NCBI GenBank assembly: GCA_002719295.1
Contig: PBHC01000015.1
Coordinates: forward strand, 1 to 26,058
Source of the DNA: Chloroflexota bacterium
Lineage (GTDB): Bacteria; Chloroflexota; Dehalococcoidia; Lucifugimonadales; Lucifugimonadaceae
Length of the DNA stretch: 26,058 nt
Reading direction: 5' to 3'
Each line of letters starts with the position of its first letter. Position 1 is the first letter of the stretch. The notes under the pieces were generated by a model that was given only the letters and a program-made list of their open reading frames with translations, was not told where the DNA came from and did no database searches. A program made the position numbers and the translations under genes. Of the stretch, positions 1,374-11,686 are shown piece by piece.

Positions 1374-2129
1374 CTAATTTTCAACTTTAGCTAGAAATTC
1401 ATTAAACTCATTAAATCCATAATTTATCCAGTCTAAGGCTCCAGATAAGAAAAATCTAGCTCCAGTTTGCATTGCCCACTCATAACTACCTATATTTGCT
1501 ACCGTACCCGCAACTCTTCCTTTTTTAGTTATTCTATGAATTGTTTCTTGAACTAATTTATCTACCTCTGGATGATTTTGTTCTCCAATATGGCCAAGTT
1601 CCTGAGAAAGATCTCCTGGTCCTACAAAAAAAACATCTATATTATCTACCTCTAAAATTTCATCTAAATTTTCTATAGCTTCTAAATCTTCAATAAAGAC
1701 CAAAACAAAGGTTTCATCATTAGCTTTTCTAAAATAATTATCTACACCTATCCCTTGTCTGCTAGTGAACATGCCTCTTTGACCTATAGGTGCAAATTTT
1801 GCAGCTTTTACAACTAATTCAGCATCTGCTTTAGTTTTCACATGAGGGACAGCAACTCCTTGTGCTCCCAAATCAAATGCGTGGTAAATAAGCTGATATT
1901 CAGGCCTTGGAACTCTAACTATAGAGGTTGCATTGATAAGATCTGATGCTCTTGTCAAATCACCTATATTTTGAGGATTTACAATAAAATGTTCTCCTTC
2001 AAACCAGAAACAGTGAGGATCATTTGGGGCAAATTGCTCTACTGTATCAGCGTCATTTAAATTTTCTATTGCAATTACGTGTTTACCATCTCTTAATCTT
2101 TGCTTTATTCTGTTCTTTCTAATTTCCAT
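1374..2129 (-). CDS. HpcH/HpaI aldolase/citrate lyase family protein (class II pyruvate aldolase fold)
   Basis: Motifs EGEH, IVRVP, FDLGAQGVAVPHV, KFAPIGQRG, FIED and VGPGDLSQELG. Confidence 0.9.
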   Translation of the reverse strand: MEIRKNRIKQRLRDGKHVIAIENLNDADTVEQFAPNDPHCFWFEGEHFIVNPQNIGDLTRASDLINATSIVRVPRPEYQLIYHAFDLGAQGVAVPHVKTKADAELVVKAAKFAPIGQRGMFTSRQGIGVDNYFRKANDETFVLVFIEDLEAIENLDEILEVDNIDVFFVGPGDLSQELGHIGEQNHPEVDKLVQETIHRITKKGRVAGTVANIGSYEWAMQTGARFFLSGALDWINYGFNEFNEFLAKVEN

Positions 2130-2890
2130 TATTTTACATTCTTTCTAGCAAATTCTTGATACTTTTGAAATCCTTCAGACATATAGGGCCTAGGATCACA
2201 TAGGAAAAACCTAGCGCCATTATCATATTGATGTTTAACATTATCTTTATTAGCAATAGCACCTGTAATTTTTCCTCTTTTTGTTATTCTTCTCATTGTT
2301 TCATCAACTACTTTTTGAACATCTGGATGGTTTGCTTGACCTGGAAGCCCCATTGATTGGGCCAAATCTCCTGATGGAACCATAAATACATCAATATAGT
2401 CAACATCAAGGATAGAGTCTAAATTTTCTACTGCAATAATATCTTCTAAAAGAACGATTAACATTGTTTGATCATTAGCTAAATCATGATAATTTTCTAT
2501 TCCAATGCCTTGCCTACTGGTGAAAGATCCTCTTTTGCCTAATGGATAAAATTTCCCTCCTTCAACAACGTTTTCAGCTTCTTCTTTATTATTTACGTGT
2601 GGAACAACTATTCCTAATGCTCCTAAGTCTAATGTTCTATAAATAACTCCTTGATCATTTTGATTAATCCTTACTATTGGAGTTGCTCCTATAATGTCAC
2701 AGGCTCTTGTAAAATTTGAGATATTTGGAGGATCAACATTTCCATGCTCTCCTTCCAAGAAAACTCCATGAGGCTTCAAAGGCCCTAATCTTTCAATATG
2801 ATCTGGACCAGAATATCCCCAAGCAGCAATACATGAAACAGCTTTTCCCTGATAAAGCCTTTCTTTTGAAATATTTCTTCTTATTTTCAT
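2129..2890 (-). CDS. HpcH/HpaI aldolase family protein, tandem paralog
   Basis: Motifs EGEHG, IVRIN, LDLGALGIVVPHV, KFYPLGKRG, LLED and PSGDLAQSMG. Start moved to ATG 2890 (MKIRRN), which matches the paralog's MEIRKN and removes the overlap with the SDR. Confidence 0.88.
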   Translation of the reverse strand: MKIRRNISKERLYQGKAVSCIAAWGYSGPDHIERLGPLKPHGVFLEGEHGNVDPPNISNFTRACDIIGATPIVRINQNDQGVIYRTLDLGALGIVVPHVNNKEEAENVVEGGKFYPLGKRGSFTSRQGIGIENYHDLANDQTMLIVLLEDIIAVENLDSILDVDYIDVFMVPSGDLAQSMGLPGQANHPDVQKVVDETMRRITKRGKITGAIANKDNVKHQYDNGARFFLCDPRPYMSEGFQKYQEFARKNVK

Positions 2891-2895
2891 AATAA

Positions 2896-3690
2896 TTAGT
2901 AGTAAACAGCTCCTTTCCATCCCCCTCCAGCCGGAATTGGTTCTCCATTTATTGATTTAGATATTGGTGACGACAAGAAAGCAACTATGTTAGCAATATC
3001 ATATGCAGTAATAACTGTATTTATTGAATTGTTAGACAACATCTTCTTTTTTGCATCATCAATTGAAATATTTTCTTTTTTTGATAATTCTTCAATTTTT
3101 TCATCACTTCTTTCTGTATAAGTTAGTCCCGGATGAATAACATTAACGTTTATACCGTATTCACCAAGGTTATCAGCAAGATTTTTTGTCAATGAGCTAA
3201 CAGAAATATTTCTCATGGATCCTATAAGATTTGCAGACGATCTGGCATTCATACCACTAATATTAATAATTCTTCCCCAACCATTTTTTTTCATTATTGG
3301 AGCTACACTTTTTGCACACCTAATATAACCTGCAACTTTAACTTCTATTTGTTCGAATAGTTTTTTATCATCAAAATTTTCTAAAGTACTATCCTCTGGA
3401 AGTGCAGCTGCGCAATTAACTAAAATATCAATTGTGCCAAAAGCTTTTTCAATATCTTTCACTGTTTTTTGAACTTCATTATTATTCTTAGTATCACATA
3501 TAAAATAATCAACTTTTACTTCTGGAGAAATATTTGAGATCTCATTTTTTGTTTGGAGCAACAAGTCTTCATTTCTAGCTAATAGAGCTATGTTTACTCC
3601 TTCTTTAGCTAAAGTTATTGCTGATGCTTTTCCTATTCCTCTATTAGAGCCTGTAATCAAAGCAACTTTTCCAGAAATTTGCAAATCCAT
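2896..3690 (-). CDS. Short-chain dehydrogenase/reductase, atypical (no YxxxK)
   Basis: TGSNRGIG Rossmann motif, DILVNCA, GWGRIINIS, INVNVIHPG, and C-terminal INGEPIPAGGG. Confidence 0.9.
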   Translation of the reverse strand: MDLQISGKVALITGSNRGIGKASAITLAKEGVNIALLARNEDLLLQTKNEISNISPEVKVDYFICDTKNNNEVQKTVKDIEKAFGTIDILVNCAAALPEDSTLENFDDKKLFEQIEVKVAGYIRCAKSVAPIMKKNGWGRIINISGMNARSSANLIGSMRNISVSSLTKNLADNLGEYGINVNVIHPGLTYTERSDEKIEELSKKENISIDDAKKKMLSNNSINTVITAYDIANIVAFLSSPISKSINGEPIPAGGGWKGAVYY

Positions 3691-3704
3691 ATTTTATAAT
3701 CCCT

Positions 3705-4526
3705 TTAGTTTTTATTTATAATTCCAGCCTTAATATTTAGGCTTCCAGATCTAAATCCTTTATTTTCTAATTCAATTTCTTTATATCCATATTTTAATAA
3801 TTCTTTAGATATTTCATTATATTTACTCTTAAATTTATTAAAATCATCTTTAGGGATTTCTATTAATGCTTTTGATTCATAATGCCTTACTCGAACTATC
3901 TTAAATCCTAATGATCTTAAATATTTTTCAGATTTTGATACCATAAGAAGTGCTTCAATAGTCACTTTGGTTCCATAAGGCAGTCTAGATGAAAGACATG
4001 GAGATGCTGGGCGATCCCAAGTTTCTAAATTTCTTTTACTAGCAAATTTTCTTATATCTTCTTTTGTAAAATCATTTTCAATTAATGGTGATCTAACTTT
4101 ATGAAGATTAGCTGCTTTCATTCCAGGTCGATAATCACCTTTATCATCTAAATTCGAACCATTTACCACCCATTCAAAATCTAGATCATCGGAAATTTCA
4201 ACTAGAGTACTATAAAGTTCATTTTTACAAAAGAAACATCTATTTACATCATTCTTAACGTAATTTTCATCTTCCATTTCTTTTGTTTCAACTATTTTAT
4301 AATTCCATCCTTTGGATTTTGCTAGCTTTATAGCATCATCTCTGTCATCTTGCGCAACACTAGGTGAAAATGACATAACTGCTAACGCATTTTTGCCTAA
4401 GGTTTCGTTTGCAACATCCATTAAATAAGATGAATCTACACCTCCAGAATATGCAACTATTACACTTTTCATTTCAAAAAGTGTTTTTTTCAACTTGTCT
4501 TCTAAATTAGAAATTTTTGTAATCAT
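3705..4526 (-). CDS. larE: ATP-dependent sulfur transferase LarE (nickel-pincer cofactor biosynthesis), CxxC...C type
   Basis: PP-loop SGGVDS, RCFFCK, GSNLDD..DYRPG, SPL, PASPCLSSRLPYG, VRVRH and GFRSGSLN are the LarE-family signature motifs. Confidence 0.9.
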   Translation of the reverse strand: MITKISNLEDKLKKTLFEMKSVIVAYSGGVDSSYLMDVANETLGKNALAVMSFSPSVAQDDRDDAIKLAKSKGWNYKIVETKEMEDENYVKNDVNRCFFCKNELYSTLVEISDDLDFEWVVNGSNLDDKGDYRPGMKAANLHKVRSPLIENDFTKEDIRKFASKRNLETWDRPASPCLSSRLPYGTKVTIEALLMVSKSEKYLRSLGFKIVRVRHYESKALIEIPKDDFNKFKSKYNEISKELLKYGYKEIELENKGFRSGSLNIKAGIINKN

Positions 4527-4680
4527 TTAGCAGAATATTAGCGAATTTTTTAAATTATTTCATTCAATAAAGTTATATTTTGGATGTTATTTTAATGGGA
4601 TTATGATAAATATATAGAAATTTACATAATAAATCAGGAGTTTATTGTAAGTTTCAGATATTGAGAAGAAGAGGAATAAG
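4527..4680. promoter_or_regulatory. Divergent intergenic promoter region (larE / DUF362) with bulged inverted repeat at 4622-4650
   Basis: 154-nt AT-rich gap between divergent starts. It contains ttaca-(ta)-ataaa tcaggag tttat-tgtaa. An SD-like gagga lies just upstream of ATG 4681. Confidence 0.5.
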
Positions 4681-6183
4681 ATGGAAAAACCTAATGTATA
4701 TTTTATGGATGCTAGGAGTGAATCACCTGACACTAGCTTGATTAACAAAACTGTGACAGTTTTCGAGGCTGCAGGTTTTGACAAAATGATAAATGAAGGT
4801 GATGTCGTCGCTATCAAAATGCATTGTGGCGAATTAGGATCTAGTGCTTATATTAGACCTGCATATGTTAGAGCAATTGCAGATAAAATAAAGCAACTAG
4901 GTGGAAGGCCATTCGCATGCGACACAACAACTCAAACTTATGGAACATGGGGATCAAGAGTTACTGAGTTAGATTTAATTGAAACCGCTGAAAGAAATGG
5001 ATTCTCATCAGCAACTCTGGGGTGCCCTTTTATATCTGCAGATGGATATGTTGGAACAAGTGATTACAGGGTTGATGTGCCTGAAGGTTACTTATTGAAG
5101 GAGGCATATATAGCTCAAGCTATTGCAGCAGCAGATAAAGTAATAGTATTAACTCACTTTAAGGGACATGGGATGGGTGTAATAGGTGGTGCTTTAAAAA
5201 ATCTTGGAATTGGATGTCAATCAAAAAGGGGTAAATTCAACGTTCACATGGGGCGTCATCCAGAATATGGAATTGGAGATTCAACCGTTTTTCATCCAGA
5301 AAATTTTAAAGGAAAAGAAGCTGATCCTGATTGGGAATTATTAGAAAATTGTTGCCCATTGGGATTATTTCAAGTAACTGATGACGATAAATTATTATGG
5401 GAAAGAGAAAAATGTATTAATTGCTTAGGTTGTGGGAGCTGGATGAATCCTAGAGGAATCTTTGAGCCTAATTTAGCAAACTTTGATGCTACTGATATTG
5501 CTATTGCTGACGCAGCTTTAGGTGTAATAAAAGCAGTAGGGAAAGAAAATATAGGTTTTATAAATGTAGCAGTTGATGTCTCTCCAAAATGTGATTGTGC
5601 AGGTTTCTCTGATCTTCCTTTAGTTCCTCACTTAGGAGTTTTTGCATCTAAAGACCCTGTTGCTATAGATCAAGCTTGTGTTAACGCTGCTATGCATGCA
5701 CCTGGAACACCTGGATCTCTTGCAGAAGAAATGGGAATTGACGCACCAGGAGAAAGAAAATTTGATTTGGGCGGAGGAGCAATTGAAGGATTAAGTGAAC
5801 AAACAACAATAAATACTGCAGTAGTAAATGGTTTGGGAAGTAGAGATCATGAAATAGTTCATGCTCAACCGCTAGGGAGAGATAGATTTGCATTCCCACC
5901 TGATCCAAGACCAACTAAAGTTAGATTTGCAAAAATGTTTGAAAAATTTCAACCTTTTCCATTTGATAGACATGATGGACGTGGTTACAAAAGACTTGAT
6001 AAAGTAGATATTGATGCAGTGAAGGGTGACAACATAACGGTAGATCCTCATTCACATCAAGATGCTGCTTATCATGGAGATGGAGGATGGCATCCTGGAG
6101 ACGATGACCCTAGTTATCACCCTAAGGATAATGGTTCAAATAATGGTAAGTCATCTAAAGATTCAAAAGTAAAAAAAGATTAA
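4681..6183 (+). CDS. DUF362 domain Fe-S protein with ferredoxin-like insert and His/Asp-rich tail; candidate NPN-dependent epimerase/racemase
   Basis: DUF362 motifs VAIKMHCGE, GGRPFACDT, THFKGH..GGALKNLGIG, SPKCDC and ASKDPVAIDQA. The insert has CCP...CINCLGC. Confidence 0.85.
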   Translation: MEKPNVYFMDARSESPDTSLINKTVTVFEAAGFDKMINEGDVVAIKMHCGELGSSAYIRPAYVRAIADKIKQLGGRPFACDTTTQTYGTWGSRVTELDLIETAERNGFSSATLGCPFISADGYVGTSDYRVDVPEGYLLKEAYIAQAIAAADKVIVLTHFKGHGMGVIGGALKNLGIGCQSKRGKFNVHMGRHPEYGIGDSTVFHPENFKGKEADPDWELLENCCPLGLFQVTDDDKLLWEREKCINCLGCGSWMNPRGIFEPNLANFDATDIAIADAALGVIKAVGKENIGFINVAVDVSPKCDCAGFSDLPLVPHLGVFASKDPVAIDQACVNAAMHAPGTPGSLAEEMGIDAPGERKFDLGGGAIEGLSEQTTINTAVVNGLGSRDHEIVHAQPLGRDRFAFPPDPRPTKVRFAKMFEKFQPFPFDRHDGRGYKRLDKVDIDAVKGDNITVDPHSHQDAAYHGDGGWHPGDDDPSYHPKDNGSNNGKSSKDSKVKKD

Positions 6184-6201
6184 AAATCATAGGAGAAAAA
6201 A

Positions 6202-6486
6202 ATGGGAAGAGCTCAAGATTTGTTAGAAAAAGCAATGCAAAATATTAAAGAATTATCTAATAATGTAGACTTCTCAGAAAGATGTAATGACGGGCTAAGT
6301 AGGTTAGATGTACAAAAAGACAAATTCTTTTTTCAGTCTTTAGCAGGACTGCCTTCAGCAAATAAGTTATTCAAGGCTACTGAAAAAATGATTTCAGATC
6401 CAAATGATACAAATATGAATGAAATTGAAACTGTCATTCAAGAAATAGACGATAAAGCTGATGCTCCAGGCACAGTCTTAACCTAG
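6202..6486 (+). CDS. Hypothetical protein (94 aa, acidic, probably helical)
   Basis: Strong SD aggag at 6190-6194. It fills the gap between flanking genes, and its TAG overlaps the GTG of the next gene. Confidence 0.75.
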   Translation: MGRAQDLLEKAMQNIKELSNNVDFSERCNDGLSRLDVQKDKFFFQSLAGLPSANKLFKATEKMISDPNDTNMNEIETVIQEIDDKADAPGTVLT

Positions 6487-7349
6487 TGAGTAATATTTTA
6501 GTTACAGGTGGCGCTGGCAGCATGGGACGGCTAGTGGCTGAAAGTCTTATTAGCAAAGGCCATTTTGTTAATATATTTGATATCCCTTCAGCAAATTATG
6601 ATGGATTCGAATCTTTAAAAACTAAAATATTTAAAGGCGACTTAAATGATGAATCTGTAATAGATGCTCTTAAAAACATTGATACTATAATACATTTAGC
6701 TGCAATTTTACCTCCTACTGCAAATACAAATCTAGAGCTTACTAAAAGAGTGAATGTTGATGGAACTAACAATCTTTTAGAAAAAATTAAAAAAATAAAT
6801 CCAAATGTACATTTGATTTTTAGTTCATCTGTAAGTGTGTATGGAAAAAATACTAATAATACACTAATTGATATAAGTTCATCAGTTAATCCAGATGATA
6901 ATTACGCTCAAACCAAATATGATAGTGAAGTTTTAGTTGACACATCTTCTGTAAAAACTACTATCTTAAGAATTTCTGGAGTTTCTATACCAATTTTTCA
7001 AGAGCCACCATCAGAATGGCCATTTTTACCTAATCAACATATAGAATTCGTTCATAGGGATGATGTAGTAACTTCAATATGTAACTCAGTAGGAAACGAA
7101 GAATCCTATAATAAAATATTTAATATTTCCGGAGGTGAAACATGGCAAATAACTGGGGAAAAATATGTGAAAGATTATTTTGAAATTTTAGAAGTTGGTA
7201 TGGAAAATGCAATTTATCAAAAAGACGAAGGGCATTTTTCGTGGTATGAATCAAAAAAATCAAATAAAATATTACAATATCAAAACAATACTTATGAAAA
7301 TTATCTAGAACAGATTAGACAGGATTTAAGTAAATTAATGGGAGAATGA
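6486..7349 (+). CDS. NAD-dependent epimerase/dehydratase (extended SDR)
   Basis: TGGAGSMG, IIHLAA, VNVDGT, SSSVSVYG, catalytic YAQTK, EFVHRDD and FNISGG. GTG start. Confidence 0.9.
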   Translation: MSNILVTGGAGSMGRLVAESLISKGHFVNIFDIPSANYDGFESLKTKIFKGDLNDESVIDALKNIDTIIHLAAILPPTANTNLELTKRVNVDGTNNLLEKIKKINPNVHLIFSSSVSVYGKNTNNTLIDISSSVNPDDNYAQTKYDSEVLVDTSSVKTTILRISGVSIPIFQEPPSEWPFLPNQHIEFVHRDDVVTSICNSVGNEESYNKIFNISGGETWQITGEKYVKDYFEILEVGMENAIYQKDEGHFSWYESKKSNKILQYQNNTYENYLEQIRQDLSKLMGE

Positions 7350-7350
7350 T

Positions 7351-8481
7351 TTGAAAAAAATAGAACAAACTTATGGATACGATGATGTAGCTATAGTCCC
7401 TGGAGAAATAACTCTAAATCCTGAATTAGTAGAAACTAAAACAAAAATAGGCGAATTAGAACTTGATGTTCCAGTACTTGCTTCAGCAATGGATAGCGTA
7501 GTAGATCCTAATTTTGCACAAGAATTATCAAGTCTAGGAGCAGCAGGTGTCATAAATTTAGACGGAATACACGTCAGATATGAAGACACTGAAGAAATAT
7601 ACCAAGAAATCATATCTACTCCTCAAAAAGATGTAACTTCTCTTTTACAAAAAATTTACAATGCTCCAATGAAAGAAAATTTAATTGGAGAAGTAGTAAA
7701 AAAGATTAAAGAATCAGGAGGCAAGTGCTTTGCTTCATTTATTCCTGCCTCTACTAAAAGATTTGCTCCTATTGCAGTTGAAGCTGGATGCGATGCTGTT
7801 GTTGTTCAGTCAACCGTAACAACTGCTAGACATAATTCAAAAAGCTTAGAAGGTCTAATTCTATCAAAATTAGTCGAGTCCCTAAATGTTCCTATTATTG
7901 TTGGAAATACAGTAACTTATAATGTCACCAGAGAGCTAATGGAACAAGGTGTTCATGGTATTTTAGTAGGCGTAGGACCAGGTTCAGCATGTACAAGTAG
8001 AGAAGTTCTAGGTGTTGGTGTCCCACAAATTTCAGCAACTCTCGAATGTTCAAGCGCTAGAGATGATTACTTCAAATTGACAGGTAGATACGTTTCTATA
8101 ATTACCGATGGCGGGATCAGAACAGGTGGTGAATTATGCAAATCTTTTGTTGCAGGAGCTGATACTGTGATGATTGGATCTCCATTCTCAAAAACATTTG
8201 AGTCTCCAGCAAAAGGAAATCATTGGGGAATGGCAACTCCACATGGATCTCTTCCAAGAGGAACAAGAATAGTAAATAATCAAGAATATAGTATAAAAGA
8301 ATTATTATTTGGACCATCTTCAAAAACAGATGGGACAAGAAACTTAGTGGGAGCGTTGAGAGTATGCATGGGAATGATCGGAGCAGAAGACATTATTTCA
8401 ATGCATGATGCAACTTTAATATATGCTCCAACCATTAAAACAGAAGGTAAAAGCTATCAGCTATCTGGATTAGGTTCGTAA
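7351..8481 (+). CDS. GuaB3-family IMP dehydrogenase-related protein (no CBS subdomain)
   Basis: YGYDDVAIVP, ASAMD, catalytic-loop GVGPGSACTSREVLGVGVPQ, DGGIRTGG and HWGMA...LPRG. TTG start with SD ggaga. Confidence 0.88.
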   Translation: MKKIEQTYGYDDVAIVPGEITLNPELVETKTKIGELELDVPVLASAMDSVVDPNFAQELSSLGAAGVINLDGIHVRYEDTEEIYQEIISTPQKDVTSLLQKIYNAPMKENLIGEVVKKIKESGGKCFASFIPASTKRFAPIAVEAGCDAVVVQSTVTTARHNSKSLEGLILSKLVESLNVPIIVGNTVTYNVTRELMEQGVHGILVGVGPGSACTSREVLGVGVPQISATLECSSARDDYFKLTGRYVSIITDGGIRTGGELCKSFVAGADTVMIGSPFSKTFESPAKGNHWGMATPHGSLPRGTRIVNNQEYSIKELLFGPSSKTDGTRNLVGALRVCMGMIGAEDIISMHDATLIYAPTIKTEGKSYQLSGLGS

Positions 8482-8483
8482 AT

Positions 8484-9761
8484 TTGGAATATAAAGCTCA
8501 AAGAGGAACAGTAGACATTCTTCCAAAAGATGAAAATCTTTGGAATTATGTTCAGGAACAATGTTTTTCAGTTTCAAAATCATTTGGTTACAGATATATA
8601 GAAACCCCTATATTTGAAGATTCAAAAATATTTGAAAGAACTGTTGGTGAAGATACAGATATAGTTGAAAAAGAAATGTATACATTTACTGATAAAGGTG
8701 GAGACAATGTTAGCCTAAGACCTGAAAATACTGCTGGTGTTTGTAGAGCATTTATTGAAAATGGATTACATAATGAAACCCTTCCTTCAAGGCTCTTCTA
8801 TTACGGGCCTATGTTTCGATATGAAAGGCCTCAGTCAGGAAGATACAGACAATTTCATCAATTTGGAATTGAATGTATTGGAGATAGCTCATTTGATAAT
8901 GATTTTGAGGTCATAAAATTAGCATGGAATATAATCAAGAGATTTAAAATTCCAAATACTGAACTAAATATTAACTCATTAGGTAATAAGGAAGATAGAG
9001 AAGTATATTCATCAAAATTAAAAGAATATTTTTCTAAATATATAAACGACTTACCAAAAGTAGATAAACTCAGATTTGATAGAGCACCTTTAAGATTATT
9101 AGATTCAAAAGAAGAGATAACAATAAAAATATCTCAAGATGCTCCAAAAACATTAGATTACATATCAAATGAAAGTAAAATTCACCATGAAAATGTAATT
9201 AATAATTTAGAAGAATTAAGTAAATCAGATGAAGATTTCAAGTTCAGAATAAATGACAAATTAGTTAGAGGTTTAGATTATTATAATAAAACTGTTTTTG
9301 AATATGTTAGTGATTCTTCTGGACCCCAAGGTGTACTATTAGGAGGCGGCAGATATGATCCATTAATCAAAATCCTTGGAGGTCCTGATACTCCTGCCGT
9401 AGGATTTGCAATGGGTATTGAAAGAATTGTTAATGAATTAAAAAAAGTTGAAATTAACAGCAAAAGCGATCTTGATATAGTCATAGTAGTATTAGATGAT
9501 AATTTTAGAATTAATGCAGAGAAACTTTCTGATTTATTAAGAAATAATCAATTAAAAACTATTATTGCACCTAGAAGATCTATGAAAGGTCAACTTAGAT
9601 TTGCAAATAATATGAATTCAAAAATTTCAATTATTTTAGGAAAAGATGAAATAAATAATGATTTACTTACAATAAAGTTTCTAAATTCAAAAAAAGATCA
9701 AATACAAATTAAAAATAATGATATGGAAAAAATCAAAAGCCTAATTATTTCTGAGGTATAA
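8484..9761 (+). CDS. hisS: Histidine--tRNA ligase
   Basis: KEMYTF, LRPENTA, FRYERPQSGRYRQFHQ, RGLDYY and GGGRYD. TTG start. Confidence 0.97.
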   Translation: MEYKAQRGTVDILPKDENLWNYVQEQCFSVSKSFGYRYIETPIFEDSKIFERTVGEDTDIVEKEMYTFTDKGGDNVSLRPENTAGVCRAFIENGLHNETLPSRLFYYGPMFRYERPQSGRYRQFHQFGIECIGDSSFDNDFEVIKLAWNIIKRFKIPNTELNINSLGNKEDREVYSSKLKEYFSKYINDLPKVDKLRFDRAPLRLLDSKEEITIKISQDAPKTLDYISNESKIHHENVINNLEELSKSDEDFKFRINDKLVRGLDYYNKTVFEYVSDSSGPQGVLLGGGRYDPLIKILGGPDTPAVGFAMGIERIVNELKKVEINSKSDLDIVIVVLDDNFRINAEKLSDLLRNNQLKTIIAPRRSMKGQLRFANNMNSKISIILGKDEINNDLLTIKFLNSKKDQIQIKNNDMEKIKSLIISEV

Positions 9762-10847
9762 ATGGAAGATTGGATATTAAATAGATTAGATGAAATAAAA
9801 AATCGGTTTGGAGAAATCGAGGTCCTTATGACTAAACAAGAAATTGTTTCTAATCAGTCAGAAATGAAAAAACTTTCTAAAGAATATAAAAATTTAGAAA
9901 AAATAAATAAGTTATGGGATGAGTACAATAAAACATCTATTGAATTAGAAGAAACAAAAGAGATGATGGATTCAGAAGACAATGAAATCTCTGAGTTAGC
10001 GAAATTAGAAAATGATACTTTAAGCAAAAATTTAGAAATACTGTTCAGTGAGTTGAATAAAGAACTAATTCCAAAAGATGCTACTGACGAAGCTGATGCT
10101 ATAGTTGAAATTAGAGCTGGAACTGGCGGAGATGAAGCAGCTATTTTTGGAAATGATCTTTTAAGAATGTATACAAGATATTCTGAAAATAATAAATGGA
10201 AATTAAAAATACTAAGTTCTAATTATAGTGAATTTGGGGGTATCAAAGAAGTTGTTCTAGAAATATCAGGAGAGGGGACTTTTTCAAAACTAAAGCATGA
10301 AAGTGGGGTTCATAGAGTTCAAAGAGTTCCAAAGACAGAATCTCAAGGTAGAATTCATACTTCCACTGCAACTGTTGCAGTATTGCCAAAATCAGAGGAA
10401 ATAGATATAGAAATCAAAGATGATGATATAAGAACAGATGTTTTTCATTCAGGTGGAGCAGGAGGGCAAAATGTCAACAAAGTGGCGACCGCTATAAGAT
10501 TAACTCATAACCCTTCTGGGATTGTTGTACCATGTCAAAATGAAAGATCCCAGCTTCAAAATAAAATGCAAGCGATGGAAATACTTAAGTCAAAATTATG
10601 GGATTTAGAATTACAAAAACAACAAGATGAAATTTCAAAAGCTAGAAAATCTCAAGTTGGTTCAGGTGGAAGGTCTGAAAAAGTTAGAACATATAATTAT
10701 CCTCAAAGTAGAATTACAGACCATAGAATAAATGTAACTGTACATAATTTATCAGAATTTATGGATGGCTTAATAGATGAGCTTATAGGACCCTTAATGA
10801 AAAATGAGCAGGCTCAAAAAATGTTGTCACAAAATCCTTCTAAATGA
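9762..10847 (+). CDS. prfA: Peptide chain release factor 1
   Basis: EIRAGTGGDEA, RF1-specific PxT in VPKTES, GGQ, and EKVRTYNYPQ. Confidence 0.97.
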   Translation: MEDWILNRLDEIKNRFGEIEVLMTKQEIVSNQSEMKKLSKEYKNLEKINKLWDEYNKTSIELEETKEMMDSEDNEISELAKLENDTLSKNLEILFSELNKELIPKDATDEADAIVEIRAGTGGDEAAIFGNDLLRMYTRYSENNKWKLKILSSNYSEFGGIKEVVLEISGEGTFSKLKHESGVHRVQRVPKTESQGRIHTSTATVAVLPKSEEIDIEIKDDDIRTDVFHSGGAGGQNVNKVATAIRLTHNPSGIVVPCQNERSQLQNKMQAMEILKSKLWDLELQKQQDEISKARKSQVGSGGRSEKVRTYNYPQSRITDHRINVTVHNLSEFMDGLIDELIGPLMKNEQAQKMLSQNPSK

Positions 10848-11686
10848 TCACAATTGGTGAAATCAAGAAAAAAATTATAACTTTATTGAATGATAACAAC
10901 ATTCTAGATTCACAATTTGAAGCAATTTCCATGATTTCATTTTCACTAGGAATCAATAACCAAAAAGCTATAATTGAAAACGATTTAGAGATATCAAATG
11001 AAGAAAATAGAACTATAAATAAGCTTCTTGAAAAAAGAATAAATGGTTATCCTTTAGCTTACTTAATAAATGAAAAATATTTTTTTAATGAAAAATTCTT
11101 TGTAAATAAAAATGTGCTAATACCTCGGCAAGAGACGGAAGAATTAATTGAATATTTCTTTTCTTTGAATAGCAAAGAATCTATGAAGAATAGAAATATT
11201 TTAGATATTGGGACTGGAAGTGGTGTTATTTCAATAATATGTAAAAAGAAATATCCTCATTCTAATTTACTTACTATTGATAAAAGCCAGGGAGCAATTG
11301 AAGTAGCAAAAAAAAATGCTGATATAAAAAATGTTTTCATTCAATTTTTTCTTGATAAAATTGAAACTTGCAAAATAGATAATATAGATTTTGTTATTAG
11401 CAATCCTCCATATCTGAAGCAATCAATATTAAAAAATTTACAAACAGAAGTCTTGAAAGAACCTAAATATGCCTTAGATGGTGGAGTTGATGGACTAAAA
11501 ATCATAAACAAAATTTTTGAATGGGAAAAAAATATCAACAAAAATAATGCTTTACAAATAATCATTGAAATTGATGAAAATATTAAGCATGAATCTAAAA
11601 AACTAGCTGAAAGTTTTTATCCAAACAAGAAAGTCCAGATTATAGACGATATTGCAAAAAAACCAAGAATTCTATCTATAATATAA
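10844..11686 (+). CDS. prmC: Release factor glutamine methyltransferase (HemK/PrmC)
   Basis: VLIPRQETE, LDIGTGSG, SNPPY and ALDGGVDGL. 4-nt overlap with prfA. Confidence 0.95.
   Translation: MITIGEIKKKIITLLNDNNILDSQFEAISMISFSLGINNQKAIIENDLEISNEENRTINKLLEKRINGYPLAYLINEKYFFNEKFFVNKNVLIPRQETEELIEYFFSLNSKESMKNRNILDIGTGSGVISIICKKKYPHSNLLTIDKSQGAIEVAKKNADIKNVFIQFFLDKIETCKIDNIDFVISNPPYLKQSILKNLQTEVLKEPKYALDGGVDGLKIINKIFEWEKNINKNNALQIIIEIDENIKHESKKLAESFYPNKKVQIIDDIAKKPRILSII

Follow-up and report, generated by a model that had tools for sequence, protein, structure and literature searches.

The closest described counterparts of the system analyzed here are the nickel-pincer nucleotide (NPN) enzymes of the LarA family (PDB entries 5HUQ, 7S91, 9EIA, 9Q3J, and 9Q3K). 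The system is a small gene cassette built around a DUF362 (PF04015) protein, next to larE, in a locus at positions 1374 to 7349 of a Chloroflexota contig (GenBank PBHC01000015.1). The window that we examined is this entire 26-kb contig (26,058 nucleotides), part of a 1.27-Mb genome that is 81% complete. According to the available sections of PMC7583248 and PMC12611868, H174 of LarA is the catalytic base, K184 the cofactor anchor, and H200 a nickel ligand; in the latter source, His173/174 is the residue for the L-enantiomer, and LarA homologues with a single His are argued to work in one direction. DUF362 and LarA belong to the same Pfam clan, CL0471, and DUF362 serves as an outgroup in the accessible part of PMC11770544. 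In common with the LarA family, the DUF362 protein has the predicted N-terminal fold, a His-x9-Lys-x15-His motif, and linkage to lar genes. It differs in that it matches neither LarA domain profile and lacks the C-terminal domain, in the apparent absence of H108, and in having a ferredoxin-like insertion with putative iron-sulfur (Fe-S) cysteines and a small helical companion. We know of no LarA that carries out net redox chemistry, and DUF362 is, to our knowledge, a widespread LarA-clan family with no function known. An ornithine cyclodeaminase that uses NPAD is reportedly a cofactor user outside LarA that was found by lar adjacency and has a fold unlike that of DUF362. Another enzyme found by lar adjacency is NphT, an NPMN-dependent hydride transferase of the aldo-keto reductase fold, which uses a His/Lys motif and carries hydride from one molecule to another; its fold differs from that of DUF362, and no Fe-S cluster is described in the available text (PMC13524815).

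Non-phosphorylative sugar-acid pathways of SAR202 group I form a second point of comparison. These pathways draw on paralog expansions of HpcH-type aldolases (COG3836) and short-chain dehydrogenases/reductases (SDRs; COG1028) and end in pyruvate and lactate or lactaldehyde; no nickel or lactate-racemase step was found in the accessible sections of the source, nor DUF362, LarA, or LarE in its supplement (PMC10444878). Our literature search for SAR202 together with lactate racemase returned nothing, and no paper linking DUF362 to NPN was found, the sole relevant mention being the use as a clan outgroup in the available part of PMC11770544. DUF362 does not appear in the main text of PMC13524815, the supplements of which were searched in part and include a co-occurrence table that could list PF04015. 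About 15% of surveyed genomes have larB, larC, and larE without larA, and the cofactor client there is treated as an open question in the sections available (PMC11796402). The DUF362 family is a candidate for this missing client and would gain its first function if the dehydrogenase proposed below is correct.

An initial annotation of the window had drawn the locus as a pathway of NPN-dependent epimerization and retro-aldol cleavage of sugars or sugar acids, with DUF362 instead of LarA. We conclude that the cassette is a real, well-supported candidate for a nickel-pincer enzyme of a new kind, but a smaller system than the pathway first drawn. Genomes, loci, and contigs are designated below by G, L, and C numbers, G000 being the source genome.

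Fold, motif, and cysteines of the DUF362 protein

The DUF362 protein (500 amino acids; positions 4681–6183, plus strand) scored 148.8 bits against PF04015 (gathering cutoff 24; E = 2.8e-43), its sole Pfam match; neither Lar_N (PF09861) nor the LarA C-terminal domain (PF21113) was matched. Its closest named relatives, at 92–95% identity, are SAR202/Dehalococcoidia records, and a PDB sequence search gave nothing better than E 0.094. An AlphaFold model was built from a 99-row alignment, with a mean predicted local distance difference test score of 80.9 and low confidence for residues 459–500. All seven Foldseek matches of this model at E ≤ 0.001 were LarA-family structures. A VIA comparison with 48,161 chains gave five at Z ≥ 8, all of them LarA-like (Z 13.7–16.8), and the next-best non-LarA score was Z 6.2. 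The model aligned with LarA entries at a root-mean-square deviation of 3.2–3.9 Å over 215–228 aligned residues at 10–12% identity, mainly in the N-terminal, cofactor-binding domain, and its residues 196–264 aligned with ferredoxin-like domains. The predicted fold is LarA N-terminal-like with a ferredoxin-like insertion. A link between DUF362 and the LarA fold had been mentioned in the initial annotation, and it is borne out by the shared clan (PMC11770544, available part), the fold searches, and the motif.

In LarA, the H-x9-K-x15-H motif comprises H174, K184, and H200, and 27 LarA genes of relatives have it likewise. Residues H163, K173, and H189 of the DUF362 protein (codons within 5167–5247, plus strand) are spaced identically and are invariant in two sets of close DUF362 homologues (99/99 and 80/80). 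A distant set (126 of 149 representatives, kept by length) retained H163 in 118/124, K173 in 122/126, and H189 in 123/125 of the filled alignment rows. A local profile alignment, weak at E 0.053, placed these residues unprompted onto H168, K178, and H194 of the genome's own LarA; in it, LarA H102, the other catalytic His, falls on S92 and R103 on R93 of DUF362, with the D/R residues (D72 and R75 of LarA) out of register. LarA K298 lies in the C-terminal domain that is missing from DUF362, and the second base of LarA, H108, appears to be absent as judged from the alignment.

Residues C225, C245, C248, and C251 (codons within 5353–5433, plus strand) are predicted to be the ligands of one [4Fe-4S] cluster, on the pattern of the 2[4Fe-4S] ferredoxins. 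Generic DUF362 proteins, labeled as uncharacterized Fe-S center proteins, have K46, H48, H159, H163, K173, H189, and the nearly invariant C304-D-C306 in common with the protein described here. The present subfamily differs from them in being longer (440–500 versus ∼370 amino acids), in having a dedicated small protein, and in having a single ferredoxin motif; the second cluster motif is lost here, versus two motifs in 78 of the 126 distant representatives.

The conserved cassette and its linkage to larE

Conservation was assessed in 80 loci, the best of 155 related ones in species genomes. An open reading frame (ORF) for a 94-aa protein (6202–6486, plus strand), 18 nt downstream of the DUF362 gene, is present in 76 of these loci, and the extended SDR that follows it (PF01370; 6486–7349, plus strand) in 74, several of the misses being contig ends. 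The conserved unit is thus DUF362, the 94-aa helical protein, and the extended SDR. The small ORF was also found in 73 of 80 metagenome loci retrieved with the extended SDR, and it persists where the order is shuffled, as in L223 and L234 (SDR, DUF362, aldehyde:ferredoxin oxidoreductase, MoaD, small protein). In these operons (L223:3529–8297, with families scanned, and L234:370–5138), the oxidoreductase and MoaD genes lie directly 3′ of DUF362. The small protein has a conserved FFF motif and a C-terminal (L/I)T. It is predicted to be all-helical; the model is a helical bundle of a common kind, for which we claim no novelty. No Pfam family was matched (at best E 0.01, for a single one of 56 members), nor any structure by Foldseek at E ≤ 0.001, nor any Atlas or PDB entry; a fused longer form was not seen among 7,999 candidates, which is weak evidence.

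A search for the small protein in 401 genomes of the phylum yielded seven distant carriers outside the class, and in all seven it directly follows a DUF362 gene of ∼50% identity. Three of these loci (L300, L301, and L303) have a tandem duplication of the pair. Because of the 76/80 and 73/80 co-occurrence and this joint duplication, the small protein is likely to be a partner subunit of the DUF362 protein. We also considered that it belongs to the extended SDR, to which it is tightly coupled and with which it stays in the inverted locus L149. This pairing was dropped because in six of the seven distant loci the small protein follows DUF362 without an SDR, and because it duplicates with DUF362. 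The extended SDR is accordingly common in the cassette but can be dispensed with. It retains its TGGxGxxG, Ser, and YxxxK motifs, it falls short of the equivalogs for GalE-like NDP-sugar epimerase (64.5 of 262 bits) and D-erythronate dehydrogenase (82.3 of 325 bits), and it may be a dehydrogenase or an epimerase; the earlier name NAD epimerase proved to be just the Pfam default label. The extended SDR could itself be the cofactor client, as larE directly follows it in a distant clade and the two stay together in L149, but we do not favor this reading given its intact NAD-binding and YxxxK motifs.

The six distant loci without the extended SDR (family f93, L298–L303) share a further context. 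In all six, the DUF362-small protein pair follows genes for E1-alpha, E1-beta, and E2 of a pyruvate dehydrogenase (PDH)-type complex (families scanned in L298 and L301, others assigned by ORF likeness), with E3 after the pair in L298 and L299. The E1-alpha scores of 374–378 bits are just below the PDH cutoff of 394, and an acetoin dehydrogenase is an alternative reading; it is weakened by G344 and G378, both single-contig genomes, in which this operon holds the sole E1-alpha found at E ≤ 1e-30. Lipoyl synthase is encoded near the pair in L301–L303.

On the opposite strand, larE (3705–4526) is separated from DUF362 by a divergent intergenic region of 154 nt (4527–4680). The gene scored 307 bits against TIGR00268 (cutoff 150), is the only copy in the genome, and encodes SGGVDS at residue 27 and cysteines 97, 100, and 177. 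A CxxC-C motif defines the [4Fe-4S]-dependent type of LarE in the available sections of PMC9283937, and by its sequence the present LarE is of that type. Within 10 kb of the DUF362 subfamily, larE was found in 45 of the 80 related loci, arranged in one of three ways: it diverges from the cassette in our own genus (8/8), lies codirectionally downstream in a distant clade (36/38; 34/35 with long flanks), and belongs to a larE-larC-larB-larA cluster that diverges from the cassette in L114 (G013, with the same full-cluster layout, is counted once with L114). The linkage is more than chance, and the larE-DUF362 adjacency singled out in the initial annotation holds in relatives. A quick tree, its root left open, gave 5 changes of larE label versus a shuffled mean of 27.5 and placed our own genus beside an unlinked clade with 97% support. 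In 44 of the 45 linked loci, larE joins the cassette without larB or larC. As a control, we looked at 10 genomes of the order that lack this DUF362: larE neighbors larB in six, larC in three, and neither in one. Furthermore, larE adjoins larC in 11 of 12 other genera of the family, whereas the two are on separate contigs in every one of the seven same-genus genomes in which both occur, so larE has left larC for the cassette; in G035, larE keeps with DUF362 at 2.3 Mb from larC and larA.

The remaining lar genes were sought across the source genome and its relatives. Among 41 genomes, larE is present in 33, one copy each, and this DUF362 in 16. A class-wide search found the subfamily in 2 of 301 genomes, plus three distant matches, and the cassette has a cultured carrier, Candidatus Lucifugimonas marina JH545 (L119, with no larE link there). 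In the source genome, larB scored above its cutoff on contig C8, and a complete two-domain larA, the single PF09861 match of the genome, lies on C10; DUF362 thus does not stand in for LarA, contrary to the initial annotation, and all 16 carriers have larA as well. Of the lar genes to be looked for elsewhere in the genome, larB and larA were recovered; larC was not found in this 81% complete assembly. It is present in 9 of 12 same-genus genomes, in G007 between genes that we take from their sequences to be clpC and tuf. In the source assembly, residues 1–46 are missing from the tuf that starts at base 5 of C17, and the best clpC match is just 41% identical, so that larC probably falls in an assembly gap. 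Among 120 Chloroflexota genomes of ≥95% completeness, in which kin are not independent, larC accompanies any DUF362 in 34 of 39 genomes (87%) versus 34 of 81 without DUF362 (42%). The link between DUF362 and larC is strong but not obligate.

Candidate function and alternatives

We consider it somewhat probable that the DUF362 protein binds NPN. The further proposal, that it is a nickel-pincer/Fe-S 2-hydroxy-acid dehydrogenase with the small protein as a subunit, and not a sugar epimerase, we hold tentatively, at slightly short of an even chance. In this proposal, K173 would tether NPN and H189 would bind nickel, as K184 and H200 do in LarA, and H163, the counterpart of H174, would take the proton from the 2-hydroxyl group as hydride passes to the cofactor. 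Since H108 and the LarA C-terminal domain seem to be missing, the hydride would not be returned; the predicted [4Fe-4S] cluster would reoxidize the cofactor and carry the electrons out. A 2-hydroxy acid would thereby become a 2-oxo acid. Lactate is the first candidate substrate because of the PDH-type operons and the lactate or lactaldehyde from fucose and rhamnose catabolism in SAR202, and an L-specific, one-way reaction is suggested by the His173/174 assignment and the single-His argument in the available part of PMC12611868. The small protein may replace the lost C-terminal domain, and LarE encoded next door would help make the cofactor. Taken to its full extent, the proposal describes a two-subunit nickel-pincer/[4Fe-4S] dehydrogenase, half a lactate racemase wired to a cluster, that oxidizes a 2-hydroxy acid, either L-lactate or a compound related to it, and in this way feeds pyruvate dehydrogenase; in that complete form it is speculative and, on balance, rather unlikely. 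If correct, it would be the first nickel-pincer enzyme to couple hydride transfer to one-electron carriers, and net redox by a protein carrying both NPN and an Fe-S cluster would be new chemistry for this cofactor. Three new leads come from the locus: a small partner that looks to be required and would have been overlooked in previous expression attempts, a pointer from the PDH-type operons toward lactate or some other 2-hydroxy acid as the substrate, and, in JH545, a carrier that is in culture. For SAR202, the enzyme could supply a disposal step for the lactate or lactaldehyde that remains after fucose and rhamnose are broken down.

Several observations weigh against this proposal, in which the gene layout, the co-occurrence counts, and the motif conservation are observed, the fold is predicted, and cofactor binding, net oxidation, subunit role, and substrate are inferred. 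The DUF362-LarA profile alignment is below significance (E 0.053, probability 1%), other profile-profile comparisons gave no match, and the equivalence of H163, K173, and H189 is one of sequence register, the fold searches yielding no residue-level superposition. Either H48 (112/123) or H159 (119/124) could stand in for H108. The motif is family-wide and occurs also in a Parabacteroides DUF362 that adjoins mnmE, where larC was searchable only in a 422-kb record. No larE lies near the f93 loci or near the cassette in one large set of 33 related loci, L119 included (0/20 with long flanks), and the three larE layouts represent few independent events, for which two or three is a fair count. In addition, the source genome has two FAD-oxidase-domain genes and might already oxidize lactate. 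These genes (G000:C12:175545–176294 and C19:19063–19812) have identical scores and frame lengths and are possibly a duplicate of assembly.

The most serious competing view is that DUF362 is an Fe-S or other metal enzyme that uses an ancestral His/Lys/His site for another ligand, with larE serving the genome's LarA and lying nearby because both need Fe-S clusters or sulfur or because genes are reshuffled in small genomes. The lar genes can be explained without DUF362, given that larA occurs in 16/16 carriers and that larE, larC, and larA are found elsewhere in the genome in 5/5 distant carriers tested. The larE-free loci fit this view, as do the five near-complete DUF362 carriers without larC among the 39 (G080, G100, G117, G416, and G432), a Bacteroides thetaiotaomicron control with DUF362 and no larC, and the occurrence of other cofactor or sulfur genes, yqeC (L212 and L226) and MoaD, as neighbors. 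It does not readily account for the move of larE from larB/larC to the cassette in two clades, the whole lar cluster abutting it in L114, the larC enrichment among DUF362 genomes, or the fact that the three kept residues are exactly those of LarA that contact the cofactor, and we regard it as somewhat improbable. A different role, as an accessory of the cofactor pathway (NPN binding, storage, or redox repair, or delivery of Fe-S clusters or electrons to LarE), would suit the recruitment of larE alone in 44/45 linked loci, the CxxC-C type of LarE, and the retention of the cofactor-binding half of LarA with loss of the substrate half. However, many lar-complete relatives lack the subfamily (present in 16 of 41 genomes, versus 33 with larE), and placement and tandem duplication inside PDH-type operons would be left unexplained, making this the least probable of the readings.

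Between these two in likelihood, and on the whole unlikely, is the reading of the initial annotation, in which DUF362 is an NPN epimerase or racemase acting on sugars or sugar acids with the extended SDR, the minus-strand SDR, and two aldolases. The LarA fold and motif, the tight operon spacing and its retention across the genus, the D-erythronate dehydrogenase profile as best NCBIfam match of the extended SDR (82 of 325 bits, far under the cutoff), and the sugar-acid catabolism typical of SAR202 group I (PMC10444878, available sections) agree with it. The comparative data do not: the aldolases turn up at four of the eight same-genus loci (4/4 where the flank is long enough) and at none of the 72 others, so that the proposed larE-DUF362-aldolase adjacency stops at the genus, and an orthologue of the minus-strand SDR (at least 50% identity) occurs in 6 of 8 and 0 of 72, respectively. 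The source genome has five more aldolase-like and 21 more SDR matches elsewhere, both groups being known paralog expansions, the minus-strand SDR lacks YxxxK, and the DUF362-small protein pair does without the extended SDR in 6/7 distant loci. A racemase would not need an Fe-S cluster, and the LarA C-terminal domain is absent; net redox, not epimerization, is the chemistry that the Fe-S cysteines and the PDH-type context favor. Both aldolases and the minus-strand SDR are probably genus-local neighbors that the system does not need, although they may supply substrate through aldol cleavage to pyruvate and an aldehyde.

Neighboring genes and additional observations

The ORF and profile scans reproduced the gene set, strands, gaps, and head-to-head arrangement across 154 nt first described, as well as the lack of a larA ORF within the window. 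Downstream of larE on the minus strand lie the SDR (adh_short; 2896–3690), possibly an atypical or nonredox member of its family, and two HpcH/HpaI-family (PF03328) aldolases, aldolase 1 (2129–2890) and aldolase 2 (1374–2129), which are 48% identical. The aldolases meet the family-level profile but reach 98–125 bits against the HpaI, GarL, and RhmA equivalogs (cutoffs 369–441). The gaps from larE through the SDR to the aldolases are 14, 5, and −1 nt, taking 2890 as the aldolase 1 start; the longer alternative preferred by the ORF caller, 2920, would overlap the SDR. Two low-complexity, Pro-rich ORFs are convergent with the aldolases, namely the end of a PGMG-repeat protein (2–526) and a lipoprotein-like ORF with WTPTPTP repeats (600–1373). 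Two weak sigma-70-like matches were seen on the plus strand of the larE/DUF362 intergenic region, and a promoter scan gave 26 sites versus a shuffle mean of 30, not above chance. The plus-strand run continues unbroken from the cassette into guaB3 (profile match) and genes that we take from their sequences to be hisS and prfA; in our own genus, guaB3, hisS, prfA, and prmC (window 7351–11,686) follow with 1–2-nt gaps, so the cassette heads a housekeeping operon.

Elsewhere in the source genome, a second DUF362 gene of another subtype (G000:C12 55862–57028; L064:7862–9028) retains the motif as KTH plus K and is flanked by an amidohydrolase and a pyridine-nucleotide disulfide oxidoreductase, with arginine genes close by, an unrelated context. 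For a LarA homologue, the source larA (G000:C10 7532–10428, L062) has an odd, pterin-related setting: it comes after two xanthine-dehydrogenase-type molybdo-subunits and reads in the same direction as folE, an SDR, and folB ahead of it and a beta-lactamase-family gene behind it. In another family of the class, larC lies ∼2 kb from a broken DUF362 gene (G054:C68 9173–13132). Six of the 33 larE-unlinked loci have larB 4–7 kb downstream on the opposite strand, which we treat as possible chance. Several loci have PaREP1-family ORFs inserted in the interval from the extended SDR to larE (L066:11255–11620 and L129–L142). A yqeC-like gene (selenium cofactor biosynthesis family, TIGR03172) directly follows the cassette in three metagenome loci: L212 (1350–2150) and L226 (8869–9681), both scanned, and L214 (2869–3438), by ORF likeness.

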